DNA from: Candidatus Nanoarchaeia archaeon
Lineage (GTDB): Archaea; Nanobdellota; Nanobdellia; SCGC-AAA011-G17; JAFCDX01
Assembly: GCA_028716945.1 (NCBI GenBank)
Contig: JAQUOT010000001.1
Span: forward strand, 283,280 to 347,279
DNA length: 64,000 nt
Direction: 5' to 3'
The position numbers were made by a program, and so were the translations under genes. The notes under the pieces were generated by a model. It had not been told where the DNA came from. It searched no databases and saw nothing but the letters and a program-made list of their open reading frames with translations. Positions 10,442 through 18,858 of this stretch are shown piece after piece (position 1 is the first letter of the stretch; each line of letters starts with the position of its first letter).

Positions 10442-11326
10442 ATGAACCAAGATTTCATAAAAGCAGGAAAAATTGCTTCACAAGCACGTGAGTATGGAAG
10501 AAGTTTGATTAAAGAAAATGCTTCTGTTTTGGAAATTGCTGAAAAAATTGAAGCTAAAATAAGAAGTCTTGGTGGAGAATTGTCTTTTCCTTGTGATGTT
10601 TCTATTAATTTCATTGCTGCTCATGATTCTCCTAAAATAAAAGATGAAAGAACCTTGAAAAAAGGGGATATTGTCAAAATTGATCTTGGAGCACAGGTAA
10701 ATGGCTGTGTTACAGATACGGCCTGTACTGTAGAAGTTAATAGTACTAAACATAAAGACTTGATTAAAGCCTCTGAAGAAGCTCTTGATAATGCTATTAA
10801 GTTATTTACTCCTAGGACAAAAGTCTGTGAAATAGGTAAAGTTATTGAAACTACAATTAAAAAATATAATTTAAGCCCTATTAGGAATCTTGCTGGTCAT
10901 GGTGTTGGTGTTTATGAGATACATACAGGAATTAACATTCCTAATTATGATAATAACAATCAAACTGTTCTTGAAAAAGGAATGGTCTTTGCTTGTGAAC
11001 CTTTTACAACTTATGGAGATGGAATTGTTATGGATGGGAAAAATTCTGAAGTTTATTCTCTTGAAGATCCTGGTAAACCAATTAGAGATTCTGGTTCTAG
11101 AGAAGTTTTAAAGTATATTAAAGAAAAGTATAAGACTTTACCTTTTTCTAAAAGAGATTTGAGTAAAAAATTTAATATATTAAAATTAACTTTGGCTTTG
11201 AATAATTTAGAAAGAGAAGGAATAATACAGCAGTATAATATATTGGTTGAAAGGTCAAAAGGTTTGGTTGCTCAGACAGAACATACTATAATTGTTGATG
11301 AAAAACCTGTTGTTGTTACAAAGTGA
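10442..11326 (+). CDS. map: methionine aminopeptidase, type 2 (archaeal)
   Basis: 294 aa. Pita-bread metal-ligand context (FIAAHDSP, KIDLGAQVNGCVTDTA, NLAGHGVG, FACEPF, AQTEHT) plus the type-2 helical insertion. Confidence 0.9.
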   Translation: MNQDFIKAGKIASQAREYGRSLIKENASVLEIAEKIEAKIRSLGGELSFPCDVSINFIAAHDSPKIKDERTLKKGDIVKIDLGAQVNGCVTDTACTVEVNSTKHKDLIKASEEALDNAIKLFTPRTKVCEIGKVIETTIKKYNLSPIRNLAGHGVGVYEIHTGINIPNYDNNNQTVLEKGMVFACEPFTTYGDGIVMDGKNSEVYSLEDPGKPIRDSGSREVLKYIKEKYKTLPFSKRDLSKKFNILKLTLALNNLEREGIIQQYNILVERSKGLVAQTEHTIIVDEKPVVVTK

Positions 11327-11369
11327 AGTTGTTAGCGTTTGGAACTTTTAGAAAAAGTGTCTCAAAAGG
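11323..11369. repeat. imperfect direct repeat DR-A (~47 bp)
   Basis: GTGAAGTTGTTAGCGTTTGGAACTTTTAGAAAAAGTGTCTCAAAAGG, ~80% identical to 12671..12718. Begins at the map stop codon. Confidence 0.7.
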
Positions 11370-11744: not shown

Positions 11745-12074
11745 ATGAATTATAAAGATGCACTTATTATAAAGCTTAAAACCTATAAAAGAGAGGATAT
11801 TATAATAACTGACCATGCACAAACCCAAGCCATATTTAGGGGAATAGATTTTGATGAAATAAAAGAAAATATTATAAACCCCAAAAGATTATATTATGCT
11901 AAGAAACAAGCAGCAGAAAAAGAAAACGAAGAAAAATATGATTGTTACTTTGATTATGGTAAAAAACAATGTCAAAGGTATATACTTGTTGTTAATGGAA
12001 AATGTATTGTTTGTACTGTAATAAAAATAAATAGGAGATGGCAAAGTTTAATAGAAAAAAATGCAAAAATATAA
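11745..12074 (+). CDS. DUF4258-like putative toxin
   Basis: 109 aa. The ITDHAQTQAIFRGIDFDEIKENI pattern is typical of DUF4258 (H-A-x-x-R...I). 14-nt overlap with the next ORF. Confidence 0.5.
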   Translation: MNYKDALIIKLKTYKREDIIITDHAQTQAIFRGIDFDEIKENIINPKRLYYAKKQAAEKENEEKYDCYFDYGKKQCQRYILVVNGKCIVCTVIKINRRWQSLIEKNAKI

Positions 12075-12420
12075 TTTTAGTTATGATATAGAGAATGATG
12101 ATCTATTTATATTTAGACCAAATTGTAAATCTAACGCAAGTGTAGAAATGGGTAATTTTATCTTTGATTATAATAATAAAAAGGAATTTGTGGGATTACA
12201 AATAATAAATGCTTCTAAATTTTTAAAGGATTGGATTAGTGAAGAAGATTTAAGGAATATAAAAAGTATTCTTTCAAGTTTAAAAGAGTGTAAACTTGAT
12301 GTTAAACAAGAAAATAATCTATTGCTTATTAAAATATTCTTATTTAGTCCTATAAAGAATATAATGGCTCCAATAATGACTCCCAGATTAGTAGAAGTTA
12401 GCCCTTCTTTAAGAGTTTAA
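12061..12420 (+). CDS. DUF2283-like putative antitoxin
   Basis: 119 aa. The YDIENDDLFIF...FVGLQIINASK pattern resembles DUF2283. Overlaps the upstream DUF4258-like gene. Confidence 0.45.
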   Translation: MQKYNFSYDIENDDLFIFRPNCKSNASVEMGNFIFDYNNKKEFVGLQIINASKFLKDWISEEDLRNIKSILSSLKECKLDVKQENNLLLIKIFLFSPIKNIMAPIMTPRLVEVSPSLRV

Positions 12421-12486: not shown

Positions 12487-12669
12487 ATGCACATTAAAGA
12501 ATTACCTTGGTTTAATCGTCCTGGCTATAAATTAGAGAAAAATGGAGCAAGTTCTTTGGATAGTGCTGAATTGTTAGCTATTATTTTTGGAAGAGGTTCT
12601 ATGCAGGAAAGTGCTTTGGAATTGGCTAATAGGTTGGTTTTTAAGTATAATTTGAATAGATTTAATTAA
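12487..12669 (+). pseudogene. RadC-family N-terminal fragment (JAB domain absent)
   Basis: The 60-aa ORF matches only the N-terminal part of RadC/UPF0758 (IKELP...RPGYKL...GASSLDSAELLAIIFGRGS...ALELANRL). It stops before the HhH and JAB regions. Confidence 0.5.
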
Positions 12670-12670
12670 G

Positions 12671-12718
12671 GTGGAGTTTGTTGGCGATTGGAACTTTTAG
12701 GAAAAGTCTCACAAAAAC
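12671..12718. repeat. imperfect direct repeat DR-B (~48 bp)
   Basis: GTGGAGTTTGTTGGCGATTGGAACTTTTAGGAAAAGTCTCACAAAAAC. Partner of 11323..11369. Begins just after the stop of the RadC fragment. Confidence 0.7.
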
Positions 12719-13272: not shown

Positions 13273-13959
13273 ATGGGTAAGAACCACCACAGACATAAAG
13301 ACAAACGAAGTGTATCTAATAATCTATTAAAAAGTTTAAAGTGGTTTTTAATTTGGACTATTATTTATGGACTTTTATATATTATTTTTAATTTCTTATT
13401 AAAAGAAATGCTTGGAACATTCCCATTTTATCAAGTTAAATTTATTTCTATTTTAATATTAGGGTTATGTTTTTCTATATCCGCTAGGATTATTCATTCT
13501 TTAATTCATAAAAAACATATTTATTTAGGAACAGATGTCTTCATATTTTGGACATTGGCTTATGGGTTATCTATTTGGTTTTTTGAATTTTTAAAAGATT
13601 TATTTATAGATAAATTAAATTTAACTATATTATCTAATGTATGGTTAGGTTTTATGTTTATCGCAATAGGAATTTTCTTCTCAATAAAAATTATTAAAAG
13701 AATAGAATTTGGTATTAGTAGACCAAAAATTAGGGCTCCTTCTCAAATTGTTTCTGGAATACTTTTACTTGTTGCAGGAATATTAACATTTAGATTTTCT
13801 ACAATTATATTTTTAAATTGGTTAAAATGGGGAGAAGGATTGGCTTGGAGTTGGTTACTAGGATTAGGTTTAATAATCGCAGGAATTTTAGTATTGGTTG
13901 CTTGGTGGAGAAATAATGTTCTTCAACATAGAATCGGAATCAAATTTGGACGGTGGTGA
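13273..13959 (+). CDS. hypothetical multi-pass membrane protein
   Basis: 228 aa with a basic N-terminus and ~6 TM helices. Its TGA stop is in frame with the ParB-like reading frame that follows. Confidence 0.55.
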   Translation: MGKNHHRHKDKRSVSNNLLKSLKWFLIWTIIYGLLYIIFNFLLKEMLGTFPFYQVKFISILILGLCFSISARIIHSLIHKKHIYLGTDVFIFWTLAYGLSIWFFEFLKDLFIDKLNLTILSNVWLGFMFIAIGIFFSIKIIKRIEFGISRPKIRAPSQIVSGILLLVAGILTFRFSTIIFLNWLKWGEGLAWSWLLGLGLIIAGILVLVAWWRNNVLQHRIGIKFGRW

Positions 13960-14052
13960 AAAATAATAAAAAAATCAGATCTCCATTTCATCCCAGTAGA
14001 AAAAACGGAAAGAAATCCAGAAAATCCCAGAATTAATTTTGATCCTAAAAAG

Positions 14053-14883
14053 ATGGGTGAATTACAAGAATCTATAAATGGGGTAGGTATACTCGTTCCC
14101 TTAATTGTTTATTATGATGATCAAAAAGATAAATATATACTTTTAGATGGGGAAAGAAGACTCAAGTGTGCTAAAATTCTAAAATTTAAAACGGTTCCAG
14201 CAAACATAATCTCTAAACCTTCTAAATTACAAAATATACTTCAAATGTTTAATATACACAATGTAAGAATTGATTGGGGCCCTATGGAAGTCGCATGGAA
14301 ATTAAAGATCATAATGAATGAATCTGGAATTGAAAAAGAATCTGAATTAGTTAGAATGACTTCATTAAAACCTGCAGAAATAAGGAAATCAAAAATACTT
14401 TTATCCTTTGATTGGAAATATCAAGAGATGGTTCATAAGGGAATCCAACAAGGAGGAATAAAACAAGATTTTTTAGTAGAATTAAACCCCACATTAAATT
14501 GGTTAGAAAACGAAATACCTGAAATAGATAAAAATAAGTTAATAGACTCTTTAATAAATAAACATAAGAATAAAATGATTGATAATTATGTAACTGGATT
14601 TAGAAACTTAAGTAAACTAATAAAATCTGGACTAAAAAAAGATAGAATACGTCAGATATTCATTAATTTAATAGAAAAAGAAAAATATTCTTTAGATGAT
14701 GCCTTCGAAACTTCTGTTAAATATCGTGTAGATATAAATGAAATAGAAAAAAGAACGAATAAACTTCTAAATTTGTTAGATAAATTAAAAATAAAAGGGG
14801 TTGATGAAAATACAGCAAATTTAGTTTCTTTATTAAAAGAGTTAAAACAAAAGATAGAGTCAATATTAAAAAATGGAAAATGA
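14053..14883 (+). CDS. ParB/Srx-domain protein (ParB-like N-terminal nuclease/CTPase fold)
   Basis: GILVPLIV...YILLDGERRLKCAKILKFKTVPANII matches ParB boxes including the GERR arginine patch. The conserved first strand and NP.NPR..FD box (IPVEKTERNPENPRINFD) is encoded at 13987..14040, upstream of the first ATG/GTG/TTG, so the true 5' end is unresolved. Confidence 0.75.
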   Translation: MGELQESINGVGILVPLIVYYDDQKDKYILLDGERRLKCAKILKFKTVPANIISKPSKLQNILQMFNIHNVRIDWGPMEVAWKLKIIMNESGIEKESELVRMTSLKPAEIRKSKILLSFDWKYQEMVHKGIQQGGIKQDFLVELNPTLNWLENEIPEIDKNKLIDSLINKHKNKMIDNYVTGFRNLSKLIKSGLKKDRIRQIFINLIEKEKYSLDDAFETSVKYRVDINEIEKRTNKLLNLLDKLKIKGVDENTANLVSLLKELKQKIESILKNGK

Positions 14884-15757
14884 ATACGAAAAAGTATCTA
14901 AAGAATATTTTAGGAGTTTGGGTTTTAGATATATTAAAAAAACTAAATTAATTAGTTATATAAATTTACAATTCTTAATTTATAATGATGGAAAAGAATC
15001 TATAGCCATTTATACTTTAAATGAAAGAAAAGAGTCTATTCATAATGTTTTAGAAGGAGTAAGGCATTGTAGTCAAGTTAAACCTTCTATAAGAATTTGT
15101 TTGTGTATTCCCGTAGAGAGTTATTTACCTGCAGATTTAAGATTAAAAATAGAAAATACAAACATAGAAATATATACTATAAAAGAAGGAATTTTAGATT
15201 GTTATTTAAAGGCAAACGATATAAAAATACTAGAAAGTCTAAAAATTGAAGATTTAAAAAAATTGCTAAAAAATATAAATTTAATTTCTTCGAATTATCT
15301 AAGATTTAATTTATTTAAAATAGATAATTCTTTACTTAATAAATTAAATTTGAATGTTTCTTCGGAGAAAGACTTTACTTACCAAGCACAAATATTAAGT
15401 TCTATATTAGAAAGTTTAGATTATAAAAGTATAAAAAACGAAATTAAATTTACAAAAAAAGAAGAAAAAGAATTAAAAGAAGGTCATTCTATTTCCGTAA
15501 TAGTTATTCTATTCAAAAAAAAGAAACTTAATTGTGATAAAGGGTTTGAAGAAGCAATAAAAGAACTAAGGAATCTAAGAGATTTAAGGAATATGCCTCC
15601 AAATCATCCTTCTTCCGGATATAAAAAAGTATGTAAACTTTATATAAATAAACAAATACCAAAAACAAGCGCAGATTGGAAAAAATTAAGCCAAATTACT
15701 TTGTCGCGTTTTCAAGAAAGTTTATTAACTATAAAAGGGCGTATAATAGGCAAATGA
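14873..15757 (+). CDS. hypothetical protein; possible N-terminal PD-(D/E)xK nuclease fold and C-terminal HEPN-like Rx5H motif
   Basis: 294 aa. N-terminus EYFRSLGF...IYND(39)...LNE(51)RK(53) gives D-x11-E-x-K spacing. C-terminus LRNLRDLRNMPPNH has R239-x5-H245 at nt 15587..15607. Overlaps ParB by 11 nt and dam by 4 nt. Confidence 0.6.
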   Translation: MENEYEKVSKEYFRSLGFRYIKKTKLISYINLQFLIYNDGKESIAIYTLNERKESIHNVLEGVRHCSQVKPSIRICLCIPVESYLPADLRLKIENTNIEIYTIKEGILDCYLKANDIKILESLKIEDLKKLLKNINLISSNYLRFNLFKIDNSLLNKLNLNVSSEKDFTYQAQILSSILESLDYKSIKNEIKFTKKEEKELKEGHSISVIVILFKKKKLNCDKGFEEAIKELRNLRDLRNMPPNHPSSGYKKVCKLYINKQIPKTSADWKKLSQITLSRFQESLLTIKGRIIGK

Positions 15758-16566
15758 GATCTACATTTTTAAAATGGGCTGGAGGAAAAAGGAGGATACT
15801 TAAAAAAATAGATACACATATCCCAAAAGAGATAAATACTTATTTTGAACCTTTCTTAGGGGGAGGTTCAATGTTTTTTTATATTAAACAAAAATATGTT
15901 CCTAAAAAATGTGTATTATCTGATATCAATAAAGATTTAATTGATTCATTTAAAGCGGTTAGAGACAATCCCAAAAAATTAATCTCTTCTTTAAAATATT
16001 TCAAAAAGAAAGATTCAAAAGAATTTTTTTATAATACAAGAAAAAAATTTAATGAAAATAAAATATTTGGAGTGAGAAGAGCGGCAGCATTTATTTATTT
16101 AAACAAAACCTGTTTTAATGGATTATGGAGAGTAAACTCGGCAGGAGAATTTAACGTTCCTTATGGAAAATATAAAAACCCAGAAATATTTAACGCAGAG
16201 AATATCTTTTATGCAAGCTATTTATTAAAAGAGGTTAAAATTTTACATCAAGATTATAGAAAAATAATTAAAATTGTTAAAAAAGGAGACTTGGTATATT
16301 TAGATCCCTGTTATGATCCATTAAAAAAAACAAGTTTTGCTAATTACACCCCAAAGAGATTTAGTGAATTAGACCGTATCGAACTTGCAAAGTTTATAAG
16401 ATTTTTAAATTATAAAGGAGTAAAAATTATCTTAAATAATAATGATATTCCCCCCATAAGAAAATTATATTCTAAATTTAATATACAAGAAATATTTGTT
16501 TCTAGGAGTATAAATTCTGACCCCTTGGGAAGAGGCAAAATAAAAGAGTTAATAATAACTAATTAA
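15754..16566 (+). CDS. dam: Dam-like N6-adenine DNA methyltransferase (D12 class) with variant DPCY motif
   Basis: FLKWAGGKRR start, motif I FEPFLGGGS, NKTCFNGLWRVN, and catalytic motif LDPCYDP (canonical DPPY). Start set at the ATG at 15754 (ATGA overlap) rather than 15676. Confidence 0.85.
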   Translation: MRSTFLKWAGGKRRILKKIDTHIPKEINTYFEPFLGGGSMFFYIKQKYVPKKCVLSDINKDLIDSFKAVRDNPKKLISSLKYFKKKDSKEFFYNTRKKFNENKIFGVRRAAAFIYLNKTCFNGLWRVNSAGEFNVPYGKYKNPEIFNAENIFYASYLLKEVKILHQDYRKIIKIVKKGDLVYLDPCYDPLKKTSFANYTPKRFSELDRIELAKFIRFLNYKGVKIILNNNDIPPIRKLYSKFNIQEIFVSRSINSDPLGRGKIKELIITN

Positions 16567-16575
16567 TAATCCTTT

Positions 16576-18858
16576 TTATCCAAAATACTCTTGTCTATTC
16601 TCAAGTGTAGCACTTCTTGCTTTTTTCAAATACTGCTCTTCAATTGCCTTATAACGTTTCAAGTCATCTTCTGAAACAGAAGGTTTTGTTTTTTCAAGAG
16701 CTTTTTCAAACATTTCCATTCCAATTTCATTAGCCTTAAGATCCATTCTTAAAGTTAATAATCCAGCTTCTCTGCAAAGTCCTTCAATATCTGCTCCCAT
16801 AAATCCTTCTGTCAATTCTGCTAACTTATCAAGTTTAACATCTTTAGCCAAAGGCATTTTAGCAGTATGTAATTTTAATATCTGTAATCTTGATTCTTTG
16901 TCAGGCATTCCTGTAAATATAATTCTATCAAATCTTCCTGGTCTAAGTAAAGCAGGATCAATCAAATCAGGCCTGTTAGTAGCAGCTATTACAACAATAT
17001 CAGATAATTCTTCAAGTCCATCCATTTCAGTTAATATAGTATTAACAACTCTTTCTGTCACACCATTATCAGATCCTTGTCCACCTCTTCTTGGTGCAAT
17101 AGAATCTATTTCATCAAAAAATACAATAGCAGGACTAGCTTGTCTTGCTTTTTCAAATATTTTTCTAACACCTTTTTCAGATTCTCCAACAAATTTATCT
17201 AATAACTCAGGACCTCTAACTAAAATAAAATTAGCTTGAGATTCATTTGCAACAGCTTTAGCAAGTAAAGTCTTTCCTGTTCCAGGAGGACCATAAATTA
17301 AAACTCCTTTTGTAGCTTTTATTCCTAATTTGGAAAAAGCTTTAGGATTTTTCAATGGTAATTCAACTGCTTCTTTTAATTCTTGTTTTAATTCTTCTAG
17401 TCCACCAATGTCAAACCAGTGAACATTTGGAATTTCAACTAGTACTTCACGCATAGCACTAGGTCTAACAATTTTTAAAGCATTTTTAAAATCATCCATA
17501 GTAATTTTTAATTTATTAAGAACTTCTTTTGGTAAAGCTTCTTTTTCTTTTAATTTTATTGAAGGCAATATATTTCTTAATACACTCATTGCAGCTTCTT
17601 TACATAAACTTTCTACATCAGCACCAACAAAACCATGAGTAATTTCAGCCAAGTTTTCTAAATTAACATCTTCTGTTAATGGCATGTTTCTTGTATGAAT
17701 TTTTAAAATATTTAATCTTCCAATTTTATTTGGAATTCCAATTTGTATTTCTCTGTCAAATCTACCAGGTCTACGTAAAGCAGGATCAATTGAATTTGGT
17801 CTATTAGTAGCACCAATAACAACAACATTACCTCTACCTTTTAATCCATCCATCATTGTTAATAATTGTGAAACAACTCTTCTTTCAACTTCACCTTGAA
17901 CTTCTTCTCTTTTTGGAGCAATAGCATCAATTTCATCAATAAATATTATAGAAGGTGCACTTTTTTCTGCTTCTTCAAAAATAGCTCTTACTTTTTTTTC
18001 TGATTCTCCATAAAATTTATTCATTATTTCAGGACCATTAATCAACATGAAGTTTGCTTCTGTTTCTGATGCAACGGCCTTAGCTAATAATGTTTTTCCT
18101 GTTCCAGGTGGCCCATGTAATAAAACTCCTTTTGGAGGATCAATTCCAAGAGCCTTGAATAATTCAGGATGTCTCATTGGTAGTTCAATCATTTCTCTAA
18201 CTTTTTTTACTTCTTCTTCTAATCCACCAACATCTTCATAAGTAACATCAATAACTTTTGTATCTTCATCAACTTCCATTGCTTTTGGATTAACTTTTAT
18301 CTGAGTATTTTCAGTAATTATAACTCCGTCTTTAGGCGCAGTATTAATAACAACAAACTTTAATCCACCCATTCCAAAATTTCCAAAATTAGATTCAAAT
18401 ACATCAAAAATATCTTCAAAAGGACTTCCACTAAAAGTTCTTCTTCTCCTAGCTCCACCACCAAGAGAAATTTGATCTCCTTTTACAACCGCTCTTCCAA
18501 GTAATCCATTTTTAAAAACTTCAGGATCTGCTTGAACCATAATTCCTTGTTGTGCAGGAGCGATTGTAATGCTTTTTGCTTCTTTAATATCTGCTTTTCT
18601 TATTGTAACAAATTCTCCAATAGAAGTTTTTGCATTTTTTCTTATAATACCATCCATTCTAATAACAGATTGACCAACATCAGTAGGATAAGCTCTATCA
18701 ACAATACCAACTGTTTTCTTTCCTGATTCAATTTCTATAATATCACCTACATGAACACCAATATCTTTCATGGTTTGAGCATCAATTCTAACAATACCTT
18801 TGTATGCTTCTTCCTGCAGCGCTTCCATAACTTTTAATTTGACTTCACTCATTTTCAA
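16576..18858 (-). CDS. cdc48: Cdc48/VCP-like AAA+ ATPase
   Basis: 760 aa. N-domain followed by two AAA modules, each with Walker A GPPGTGKT, Walker B (IIFIDEIDA / IVFFDEIDS) and ATNRP...D.AL.RPGRFD. Confidence 0.95.

Follow-up and report, generated by a model that had tools for sequence, protein, structure and literature searches.

A ParB–protein X–Dam methylase triad in a nanoarchaeal genome as a probable variant of a restriction-modification and abortive-infection defence system

Three overlapping genes in a 64,000-nt stretch of genomic DNA from a “Candidatus Nanoarchaeia” archaeon (the window) encode a ParB-like protein, a two-domain protein referred to here as X, and a Dam-family DNA methylase. 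This triad most likely represents a rare form of a widespread and so far scarcely described restriction-modification (R-M) plus abortive-infection defence system that is similar in design to PD-lambda-5. We consider it fairly probable that its products act as a translationally coupled defence module in which the methylase would mark the cell's own DNA, probably at GATC, and ParB, with its clamp-type nucleotide-binding motifs and DNA-binding region but no ParA, would serve as a DNA sensor or licensing switch. Protein X would be the effector: its degenerate restriction endonuclease (REase)-fold N-domain would be an adaptor docking ParB and/or reading DNA, and its helical C-domain would be toxic, most likely as a metal-independent HEPN-type RNase acting via N136, E180, R239, N240, and H245. 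On encountering unmethylated foreign DNA, ParB would release or activate X, and the active X would then arrest the cell or destroy the transcripts of the invader.

All three genes are on the plus strand: the ParB-like gene (13963..14883; reading from the ATA at 13963 gives 306 codons), the middle gene, encoding X (14873..15757, including the stop codon; 294 aa, N-domain plus C-domain), and the methylase gene (ORF 15676/15754..16566; 270 aa, with the ATG at 15754 taken as the start). The ParB and X genes overlap by 11 nt and the X and methylase genes by 4 nt (ATGA), and the ORF coordinates bear out the layout proposed in an earlier sequence-only reading of this DNA. That reading also placed the triad in an accessory island with map (10442-11326) on one side and cdc48 (16576-18858, minus strand) on the other; the position is correct, but no flanking integrase, tRNA gene, or change of composition such as might delimit an island was found in the window. 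Genes resembling those of toxin-antitoxin (TA) systems (DUF4258/DUF2283) are located near the triad. The genes of this family are currently annotated as “partition protein,” “hypothetical,” and “Dam.”

The first ATG of the ParB gene, at 14053, had been taken as its start, as gene callers also do, which yields a 276-aa product devoid of box I. The start lies instead 90 nt further 5', at 13963, where the homologues have ATG and the window has ATA. The 30 additional codons are open; they cover the first strand, which is conserved, as well as the NPENPR box, and match the 306-aa homologues residue for residue (these begin with MKKESDL, and the aligned residues in the window are IIKKSDL). An SD-like GGTGGTGA is found 5' of the ATA, which is positioned 4 nt past the stop codon of an upstream same-strand gene, making re-initiation by translational coupling plausible. 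Because ATA is not a standard start codon, expression of ParB may be poor in this genome, or the protein may lack its N terminus, and the module in the window could be decaying.

In ParB, a predicted N-terminal NTP-binding domain is followed by a middle region of HTH type, and the C terminus is helical. The ParB N-terminal fold and the GERR box, both recognized in the sequence-only reading, are supported by a match to Pfam ParB_N (E 2.8e-8) with the motif LLDGERR inside the domain, and, once the start is extended, PHROG ParB families match down to E 2e-16. In a profile search of the PDB, residues 10-165 matched Myxococcus, Helicobacter, and Bacillus ParB/Spo0J and Noc (E 5e-14), with the alignment to these structures running through the HTH region. 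Across 35 family members, the box I-like NPENPR (14014..14031, plus strand, upstream of 14053) has invariant N18, N21, P22, and R23; the stretch LLDGERR, containing the box II nucleotide-binding arginine patch GERR (14149..14160, plus strand), has invariant L61, D62, G63, E64, R65, and R66; and MFNIHNVR (14245..14268, plus strand), the signature of the subfamily at the position of box III (ENLQR), is invariant throughout. The canonical ParB/Noc/KorB clamps and the window protein thus share box I (NPxxPR), box II (GERR), and the N and R of box III, but the alignment of MFNIHNVR with LVENLQR of Myxococcus ParB has an invariant histidine in place of the catalytic glutamate; the window protein also differs in having no ParA partner and in its linkage, seen across the subfamily, with an effector-type partner gene and a methylase gene. 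Judging by boxes I, II, and III, and save for the E-to-H replacement in the last of them, the protein appears to be of the CTP-binding ParB type.

The N-domain of X (aa 1-113; 14873..15211, plus strand) is modeled by AF2 with pLDDT of 81-93 as a restriction-endonuclease-like alpha-beta3-alpha-beta fold, whose elements (H2-15, E19-25, E33-38, E43-48, H56-69, and E74-80) correspond to the alpha-beta-beta-beta-alpha-beta core of PD-(D/E)xK enzymes. Foldseek matches this domain to XisH (2inb/2okf; E 2e-3, prob 1.0, TM 0.6), and further matches include PaqCI, EndoMS, tRNA-splicing endonuclease, Kpn2I, and McrC, in agreement with the earlier proposal of a REase-like fold in this region. The catalytic motif proposed along with it, D39/E51/K53, did not hold: these residues are present in X but vary even among its 3-4 closest homologues, and the model places them in a hairpin turn and a loop, away from the canonical positions on strands 2 and 3 (strand 3 reads SIAIYT in the window protein). 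Across 21 homologues, none of the acidic and lysine residues of this domain is invariant, which argues against the suggested dual DNase/RNase effector. The domain is probably non-catalytic, as far as its conservation pattern indicates, and probably serves as an adaptor or DNA-reading domain. It is homologous to the N-domain of a family of partners with a canonical HEPN domain (hhalign Prob 98.6, E 9e-16), described below.

The C-domain of X (aa 114-294 plus the stop codon; 15212..15757, plus strand) is a putative all-alpha effector, HEPN-like by motif and modeled with pLDDT of 94 and pTM of 0.89. Its segment R239-N-M-P-P-N-H245 (LRNLRDLRNMPPNH; 15587..15607, plus strand, with R239 at 15587-15589 and H245 at 15605-15607) fits the Rx4-6H pattern. 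This R-x5-H match, already spotted in the sequence-only reading, turns out to be the most conserved feature of the X family: N136, R239, and P243 never vary, and in 27 sequences of ∼20-48% identity R239 is invariant and H245 conserved at 90% or more. The R..H motif is invariant in the 4 close homologues, and this conservation is far above chance. The residue following the R is mostly N (S, K, A, or G in a few members), and the spacing is 5 or 6. HEPN domains have been defined as four-helix up-down bundles with an Rx4-6H motif whose R is followed by a polar residue (N/D/H) and which spans the end of core helix 3 and the beginning of the loop that leads to helix 4; helix 2 has an acidic residue, and an insert separates helices 2 and 3 (PMC3710099). 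In the AF2 model of the C-domain, helix 112-128 ends at R128 (=R239), with the H in the next loop, E/D closes the core helix 54-69 in 22 of 24 sequences, and helices 73-105 are inserted between core helices; the motif, helix end, acidic residue, and insert would all conform to that definition, with position judged from secondary structure only. The C-domain is also found joined to other N-termini.

Searches for relatives of this domain gave little. Foldseek against the PDB returned nothing at E<1 (best E 1.3), and HEPN structures ranked third (HEPN-MNT 8xeh_B) and fifth (AF0298 2hsb) in its list, with E of 1.6-2.0 and prob of 0.15-0.18. The C-domain had no match in a BFVD structure search or in Pfam, PADLOC, PHROGs, and NCBIfam; none of the 27 X members matched Pfam HEPN families at E<=10; and hhalign against the canonical RNxxxH HEPN domain of the sister family gave Prob of 0.1-0.2. 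The profile and structure searches suggested earlier for this protein have therefore recovered the REase fold and yielded no significant match to a HEPN fold by Foldseek, Pfam, or hhalign, and the HEPN assignment of the C-domain, made from the motif and the modeled helix placement only, is putative.

The third gene encodes a D12-class N6-adenine methyltransferase, as had been proposed (PF02086, E 3.9e-59; TIGR00571, 280 bits against a cut-off of 115), and matches PADLOC MTase_II at E 6e-92. Its closest PDB relatives are DpnM (2dpm, E 5e-59) and then E. coli Dam (E 7e-37), with both of which it aligns end to end, including the FNGLxRxN...FNVP region; its grouping with DpnM, an R-M methylase, supports the earlier reading. 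Motif I, FxGxG in this class, is FLGGGS (15853-15870, plus strand), and motif IV, generally (D/N/S)PP(Y/F/W), is DPCY (16303-16314, plus strand) in place of DPPY, a replacement that is kept in 7 of 7 X-class methylases and that counts against the main explanation. Relative to the DpnII R-M system, the triad differs in this motif and in having no DpnII-type endonuclease. DpnM and E. coli Dam both methylate GATC, and from the similarity to these enzymes, together with the DpnII and BglII neighbors in related loci, we infer that the window methylase is probably GATC-specific. In the window, GATC falls mildly below expectation (O/E 0.72), a modest effect that is also seen for GTAC.

The arrangement recurs elsewhere. 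Relatives of X are few, and each one examined directly follows a ParB of the MFNIHNVR subfamily. An adjacent adenine methylase is found in 16 of 16 informative X-type loci: among 17 non-redundant loci of this class (the window counted), a D12 methylase is located immediately downstream in 13 and upstream in 1, the others having MT-A70 (1), probably an N6_N4 methylase (1), or a contig end (1). The overlaps are kept as well, with 11, 8, or 4 nt between ParB and X and 4 nt between X and the methylase. Flanking genes across the loci include those for RE_XcyI with a methylase, Mrr, type I/IIG R-M proteins, BglII, DpnII, TdeIII, TIR, AIPR, and ThsA_Macro. The proposal of a methylation-linked, co-conserved defence-type module is upheld by this recurrence of the triad in unrelated contexts, often next to R-M, Mrr, TIR, and AIPR genes.

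The ParB subfamily, defined by the invariant NPxNPR, LLDGERR, and MFNIHNVR, is far broader than X. It is present in at least 81 of 185,579 species-representative genomes, which are spread over many phyla of bacteria and archaea, and at least 434 metagenome stretches also carry it; nearly all copies are tightly linked to a partner of ∼235-300 aa. Clustering of 142 distinct partner sequences showed that the effector domain is exchanged between loci. The commonest class (74 of the 142) combines a shared N-domain with a C-domain carrying an invariant E...RNxxxH, the canonical HEPN signature, and gives weak matches to DUF4145; 43 are PRTase-CE proteins (PF24390) that match PADLOC models of type III CRISPR-associated PRTases at E 3e-42; 16 are X-type; 6 form an actinobacterial class; and one has an Mrr_cat domain. 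In the sister systems, where a MFNIHNVR ParB and an adenine methylase accompany an RNxxxH HEPN or PRTase-CE partner, ParB is orthologous to that of the triad (30-60% identity), and the homologous partner N-domain and the linkage to a D12 methylase are likewise held in common. By contrast, the C-domain of X has no detectable similarity to the sister RNxxxH HEPN and PRTase-CE domains, its motif is spaced Rx5-6H as opposed to Rx4H in the sister HEPN class, and its genes follow the order ParB-X-methylase, whereas that class usually has methylase-ParB-partner.

Several described systems resemble the triad. PD-lambda-5 (“ParB/HEPN, methyltransferase”) of E. coli ECOR7, shown experimentally to protect broadly against phages, has been presented as an RM+Abi system in compacted form (Vassallo et al. 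2022; PMC9519451, Table S1). In common with the triad, it has an N-terminal domain of ParB type, a region resembling HEPN (in X, by motif), and an adenine methyltransferase of the D12 class, but it consists of two genes, with ParB_N and HEPN fused (∼500 aa), whereas the triad has separate genes for ParB and the effector, a full-length ParB (NTD, HTH, and C-terminal helices), and an extra REase-fold domain in the effector; PD-lambda-5 resides in an enterobacterial prophage and the triad in an AT-rich archaeon. At the sequence level, the PADLOC PD-Lambda-5_A models cover only 45-48 residues of the window ParB_N (E 8e-5 to 2e-3) and find nothing in X at E<=1, and the methylase scores E 6e-14 with PD-Lambda-5_B versus E 6e-92 with the generic MTase_II. 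Operons of a HEPN domain with ParB and a methylase (HEPN MAE_28990; RiboL-PSP-HEPN, “operon with ParB”) were listed by Anantharaman et al. 2013 (PMC3710099). These were predicted in silico to combine a HEPN protein with a conserved Rx4-6H, a ParB-superfamily protein, and a DNA methylase, and the triad follows the same operon logic; they were, however, reported for bacteria only, and a REase-fold adaptor domain and effector swapping were not described. PF18737 (HEPN_MAE_28990) did not match X, 26 relatives, or five canonical-HEPN sister partners, and Pfam HEPN_RiboL-PSP did not match X or the canonical-HEPN sister partners. The triad is therefore not a sequence-level member of PD-lambda-5 or of the 2013 operons, and the earlier statement that it fits no named system was overstated, given that PD-lambda-5 has the same domain set and the 2013 operons had been listed. 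Lactococcal AbiR, which contains a ParB-like protein and is toxic without its cognate R-M methylase (PMC13064643), can be likened to the triad by description only, as an abortive-infection system with a ParB-like protein and an R-M methylase that prevents self-toxicity; its other components, a sigma-like protein and a nuclease/SNF2 helicase, are different.

Compactness, overlapping genes, and a sporadic, horizontally scattered distribution would also suit a selfish, TA-like addiction module kept by post-segregational killing, with X as the toxin and the methylase or a KorB-like repressor ParB as the antidote, and both the AbiR-type toxicity in the absence of its methylase and the nearby DUF4258/DUF2283 genes are in keeping with it. 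We regard this as unlikely: no full-length copy of the ParB subfamily was found on plasmids or viral contigs (PLSDB, IMG/VR), where addiction modules abound, and effector swapping and defence-island neighbors are more typical of immune systems, although the two roles are compatible, as in classic R-M systems. Loss of the ParB start codon raises a comparably small chance, compatible with the other explanations, that the module is inactive or decaying in this genome; the ATA in place of ATG and the truncated gene call speak for it, and the open, conserved upstream codons, the SD-like sequence, the plausible coupled re-initiation, and the intact X and methylase speak against it. A lower probability still attaches to ParB being itself the effector, either a ParB/Srx-type nuclease or an NTP-depleting enzyme, with X as a non-catalytic regulator or specificity subunit whose R/H motif binds a ligand or nucleic acid. 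The ParB of such operons is called “ParB nuclease” in the literature, and ParB/Srx proteins can nick DNA or hydrolyse NTPs (PMC12839542), the nuclease fold of the X C-domain is unproven, and an invariant H replaces the box III glutamate. The partner slot of the sister systems, however, holds bona fide effector domains (the RNxxxH HEPN signature, PRTase-CE, and Mrr_cat), so the partner, rather than ParB, is argued to deliver the output, and the nearest solved relatives of ParB are CTP-dependent clamps, not nucleases.

That X is instead the GATC endonuclease of an ordinary type II R-M system, with the PD-(D/E)xK-fold N-domain making the cut and ParB as an accessory protein, appears very improbable. 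Such a role would accord with the fold, with the size of X (294 aa, near those of DpnII/MboI enzymes), with the DpnM-like methylase, and with the mild under-representation of GATC, but the N-domain has no conserved D...(D/E)xK among the 21 homologues, X matches neither DpnII nor other REase families, and a separate complete R-M pair (DpnII, BglII, or XcyI) adjoins ParB and its partner in some loci. Least probable of all is a housekeeping or mobile-element module for segregation and epigenetic control, in which ParB would act in partition and Dam in replication timing. Annotated copies are indeed named “ParB/RepB/Spo0J partition protein,” and the NTD and HTH resemble those of chromosomal ParB; yet a ParA-like gene (an ORF with a deviant Walker A motif) was detected in only 1 of 145 loci and not in the 64-kb window, the subfamily occurs in only ∼81 of the 185,579 species genomes, almost every copy is linked to a variable effector-type partner, and no full-length copy of the subfamily was found in IMG/VR or PLSDB. 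Beyond the preferred R-M-plus-abortive-infection reading, we tentatively raise a bolder one, that the triad may be one effector variant of a large uncatalogued immune family in which a full-length, CTP-type ParB clamp of the MFNIHNVR subfamily senses the methylation set by its partner adenine methylase and licenses swappable effectors via a shared, catalytically dead REase-fold adaptor; the X C-domain would then be a new nuclease domain without structural kin in the PDB, either an extremely divergent HEPN or an R/H RNase that arose by convergence. The effectors of such a family would include canonical HEPN, PRTase-CE, Mrr, and the X C-domain.

The main known role of ParB proteins is that of CTP-driven DNA clamps in the segregation of chromosomes and plasmids. 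In the operons described here, a ParB that carries the complete clamp motif set stands beside a self-marking methylase and a swappable, putatively toxic effector in at least 81 bacterial and archaeal species, including small-genome DPANN-type archaea. If the proposed function is correct, ParB clamps would have been recruited as immune DNA sensors, and the triad would offer a way into the mechanism of PD-lambda-5, of which the papers cited here give no description. It would also add a family that is absent from PADLOC v2, and both a new, compact effector domain and a modular adaptor would become available for study.

Close relatives of X, the 294-aa product of the middle gene of the triad (14873..15757), number 3 in 5.8 billion clusters, and 30 relatives were found in the 1.8-billion representative library. 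Each full-length relative encoded on a readable contig (loci L001, L004, L006, L007, L009, L010, L012, and L013) follows a ParB of the same subfamily as that of the window. A D12 methylase lies directly downstream in 13 of the 17 non-redundant loci of this X class (i.e., those whose ParB partner is X-type), the window included. Among the remaining loci, one carries the D12 methylase gene upstream, L012 encodes an MT-A70 methylase, L108 probably encodes one of the N6_N4 type, and one contig is truncated. Because the census relied on simple ORF calling and pattern-seeded retrieval, all locus counts are lower bounds; it also includes some redundant copies, with the same contig coming from different archives. 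The short gene overlaps of the triad are kept in the X-class relatives. Their surroundings differ from locus to locus and are often defense-rich, with neighbors such as RE_XcyI and a methylase, Mrr and MazE, an N6_N4 methylase, SNF2 and N6_Mtase, or AIPR, SNF2, BglII, and TIR. The synteny check on the triad was thus positive, as ParB precedes X and an adenine methylase adjoins across X-class loci whose contexts are mutually unrelated. The search for related loci with a 4-sequence alignment of X returned a Woesearchaeota MAG only.

ORF calling in the window bore out the three genes as previously described, with the 11-nt overlap of genes 1 and 2 and with the TGA of gene 2 lying within the ATGA that provides the start of gene 3 at 15754; the longest ORF version at this locus begins at TTG. 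The start of the ParB gene at ATG 14053, assumed in the sequence-only reading, did not hold. The 30 open codons 5' of this ATG encode a conserved segment with IKKSDLHFIPVEKTERNPENPRINFDPKK and supply two elements required in any ParB N-domain, the NPxxPR box and the first strand. The homologues are 306 aa long with the N-terminus MKKESDL, and in the DNA alignment their ATG falls exactly on the window ATA at 13963, so the real ParB gene spans 13963-14883, with a non-canonical start codon (ATA) in the source genome. This ATA is preceded by the Shine-Dalgarno-like GGTGGTGA, which overlaps the stop of an upstream ORF for a 228-aa membrane protein (13273-13959) on the same strand and in the same frame, only a TGA and one more codon lying between this ORF and the ATA. 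The possibilities are that the ParB gene initiates at ATA 13963, where re-initiation could occur since the upstream ORF stops 4 nt earlier, or that it has (recently) lost its start codon. A TGA read-through fusing the membrane protein to ParB was rejected because the homologues start at their own ATG with their own Shine-Dalgarno sequence and have unrelated upstream genes.

The window is AT-rich (G+C, ∼27%), and the triad is adjoined by two archaeal markers, the methionine aminopeptidase gene map (10442-11326) and, on the minus strand, a gene for a Cdc48-type double AAA ATPase (16576-18858). The placement between map and cdc48 was confirmed, but the proposed accessory island showed no tRNA, integrase, or GC shift when such boundary marks were sought around the triad. 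A 39-nt direct repeat (87% identical) is found at 11329-11367, 3 nt past the map stop, and at 12678-12716. The 1.35-kb block between the copies contains a 73-aa ORF, an overlapping, toxin-antitoxin-like DUF4258/DUF2283 pair (11745-12074 and 12061-12420), and a 60-aa fragment (12487-12669) whose match is confined to the N-terminal part of RadC (UPF0758_N); this block 3' of map may be what a small inserted element left behind. A 241-nt direct repeat within cdc48 (17085-17325 and 17907-18147; 74% identical) was dismissed as reflecting two homologous AAA domains.

The ParB protein matches Pfam ParB_N (E = 2.8e-8), and with the extended N-terminus the PHROG ParB families reach E = 2e-16. Residues 10-165 of the family profile align to the CTP-dependent clamps, namely, Noc and the ParB proteins of Myxococcus, Helicobacter, Bacillus, and Caulobacter, with E values down to 5e-14. 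The motifs NPxNPR, GILVPL, LLDGERR, and MFNIHNVR are invariant in 35 family members; where canonical ParB has ENLQR, the subfamily has MFNIHNVR, keeping the N and R but replacing the E with H. At 332 clusters, the subfamily is far larger than the X family, and it is found in 81 GTDB species-representative genomes that span many phyla of bacteria and several lineages of archaea, as well as in at least 434 metagenome stretches. Conexibacter sp. DBS9H8 (NZ_CP097128.1), Agrococcus lahaulensis DSM 17612, and Leucobacter celer are among the cultured organisms that carry sister classes of the module. Despite the likeness to ParB, a partition function of the triad was rejected for lack of ParA, a ParA-like gene being found at 1 of 145 loci. 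Carriage of the module by phages or plasmids was likewise set aside, as no full-length subfamily ParB was found in IMG/VR and the PLSDB search returned only distant ordinary partition ParBs.

Assignment of the third gene product (15754..16566) to the Dam-family D12 methylases was borne out by Pfam and NCBIfam matches, and its nearest solved relatives, DpnM (E = 5e-59) and E. coli Dam (E = 7e-37), are both GATC enzymes. Motif IV reads DPCY (16303-16314) instead of the canonical DPPY in all 7 X-class triad methylases examined (the window, L001, L004, L006, L007, L009, and L010), whereas more distant methylases of the system (L013 and L020) retain DPPY; DPCY is a conserved, unexplained variant of this catalytic motif. 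GATC occurs 100 times in the window versus 140 expected under a maximal-order Markov model (O/E, 0.72) and, together with GTAC (O/E, 0.71), is one of the two most under-represented palindromic tetramers. With GTAC equally depleted, this weakly backs a GATC-linked model.

Scans of Pfam, PADLOC, NCBIfam, and PHROGs with protein X and 26 relatives assigned it to no family, and searches of the PDB by sequence and by profile, whether with X or its C-domain, found no match. In the AF2 model (pLDDT, 82.7), the N-domain (aa 1-113) has the topology alpha-beta3-alpha-beta-alpha-beta2 and is predicted to adopt a restriction-endonuclease-like fold: the top Foldseek match is XisH (E = 2e-3; prob, 1.0), and others include PaqCI, EndoMS, tRNA-splicing endonuclease, Kpn2I, and McrC. 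The fold part of the earlier PD-(D/E)xK assignment therefore stands, but the proposed D-x11-ExK catalytic site was rejected, as D39, E51, and K53 vary even at 45 to 48% identity. Because of this variation, and since no polar residue of the N-domain is invariant among 21 full-length relatives, the domain keeps the fold but is very probably no nuclease.

All invariant residues of the X family (N136, R239, and P243) are located in the C-domain (aa 114-294), and H245 is conserved in at least 90% of the sequences. This domain, modeled from 24 diverse sequences (pLDDT, 94; pTM, 0.89), is all-helical; a long helix ends at R239 with H245 in the next loop, an earlier core helix is closed by an acidic residue in 22 of 24 sequences, and further helices are inserted between the core ones. 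Such an arrangement of motif and helices defines the HEPN active site (Anantharaman et al., PMC3710099). The Rx5H placement thus favors the HEPN assignment of the sequence-only reading, but fold and profile searches do not: nothing scored below E = 1 in the PDB with Foldseek (the hits at ranks 3 and 5 are HEPN structures but not significant), the BFVD search gave no match, and no HEPN Pfam model matched X or its relatives. A HEPN domain accordingly represents a reasonable but unproven reading of the model. The C-domain is also joined to other N-termini, such as wHTH, in unrelated proteins. Its signature, LRxLxxLR[NS]xxxPxH, stands behind unrelated N-terminal regions in P0142 and P0145-P0152 of the representative library (287 to 477 aa; one with a winged helix), and a profile search of a further large protein collection retrieved at least 5 proteins.

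ORF calling at 186 loci identified a tightly linked downstream partner of 235 to 300 aa for almost every subfamily ParB, and the 142 distinct partners formed four clusters plus a few singletons. The canonical HEPN class (74 distinct partners) has a C-domain with an invariant E...R-N-x3-H and a weak match to Pfam DUF4145 (E = 4e-4), and its N-domain is homologous to that of X (hhalign Prob, 98.6; E = 9e-16). The PRTase-CE class (PF24390; 43 distinct partners) matches PADLOC models of type III CRISPR-associated PRTases (E = 3e-42), with at least one member fused to an X-like N-domain. Such pairs were seen at L020:2546-3775, L021:5968-6759, L026:5965-6789, and about 40 other loci; at L021, the pair is preceded by an N6_N4 methylase and a DpnII endonuclease. 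The X class comprises 16 distinct partners and a small actinobacterial class 6, of about 236 aa. One of three singletons (L065:2535-3455; 306 aa) carries a C-terminal Mrr_cat restriction-endonuclease domain. Unannotated partners of about 505 aa were seen in “Candidatus Velamenicoccus archaeovorus” and an Omnitrophota MAG (L094/L095). An adjacent D12 methylase was found at 51 of 73 HEPN-class and all 6 actinobacterial loci; loci without one have N6_N4 methylases (12 cases), further D12 methylases (6 cases), or MT-A70, and the endonucleases DpnII (2), BglII (2), or TdeIII, as neighbors. As profile comparison shows no similarity of the C-domain of X to either the HEPN C-domain of the canonical sister class (hhalign Prob, 0.1 to 0.2) or PRTase-CE, the C-domain of X is a distinct domain in the effector slot. 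Literature searches on PRTase-CE and on ParB, PRTase, and HEPN, of incomplete coverage, found no description of this modular family.

The design of the triad is already known, and, as judged from sequence, it falls outside the named families. PD-lambda-5, listed as “ParB/HEPN, methyltransferase,” gives broad protection and requires an mrr-deleted host (PMC9519451); AbiR includes a ParB-like subunit and becomes toxic if a cognate methylase is missing (PMC13064643). PD-lambda-5, however, has two genes versus three, and in PADLOC its PD-Lambda-5_A models cover only ∼45 residues of the window ParB_N and leave X unmatched; the HEPN family MAE_28990 (PF18737) is matched by neither X, its relatives, nor the sister partners. 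The triad further differs in its full-length ParB, the apparently inactive REase-fold adaptor and divergent Rx5-6H helical putative effector in X, and its archaeal (DPANN-like) or possibly CPR host, the closest locus being in a Woesearchaeota MAG.

The most economical model for the triad is restriction-modification plus abortive infection, with the step order, target site, and chemistry as we infer them. The methylase would mark GATC; ParB would bind or clamp DNA in a nucleotide-dependent manner and tell unmarked DNA apart; and X would then be released or activated, leading to RNA cleavage. The dead REase-fold domain may serve to anchor X on ParB or else to sense whether GATC is methylated. 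A sensor-like part that stays constant, together with a methylase for self-marking and toxic domains that can be swapped, is the signature of an immune system.
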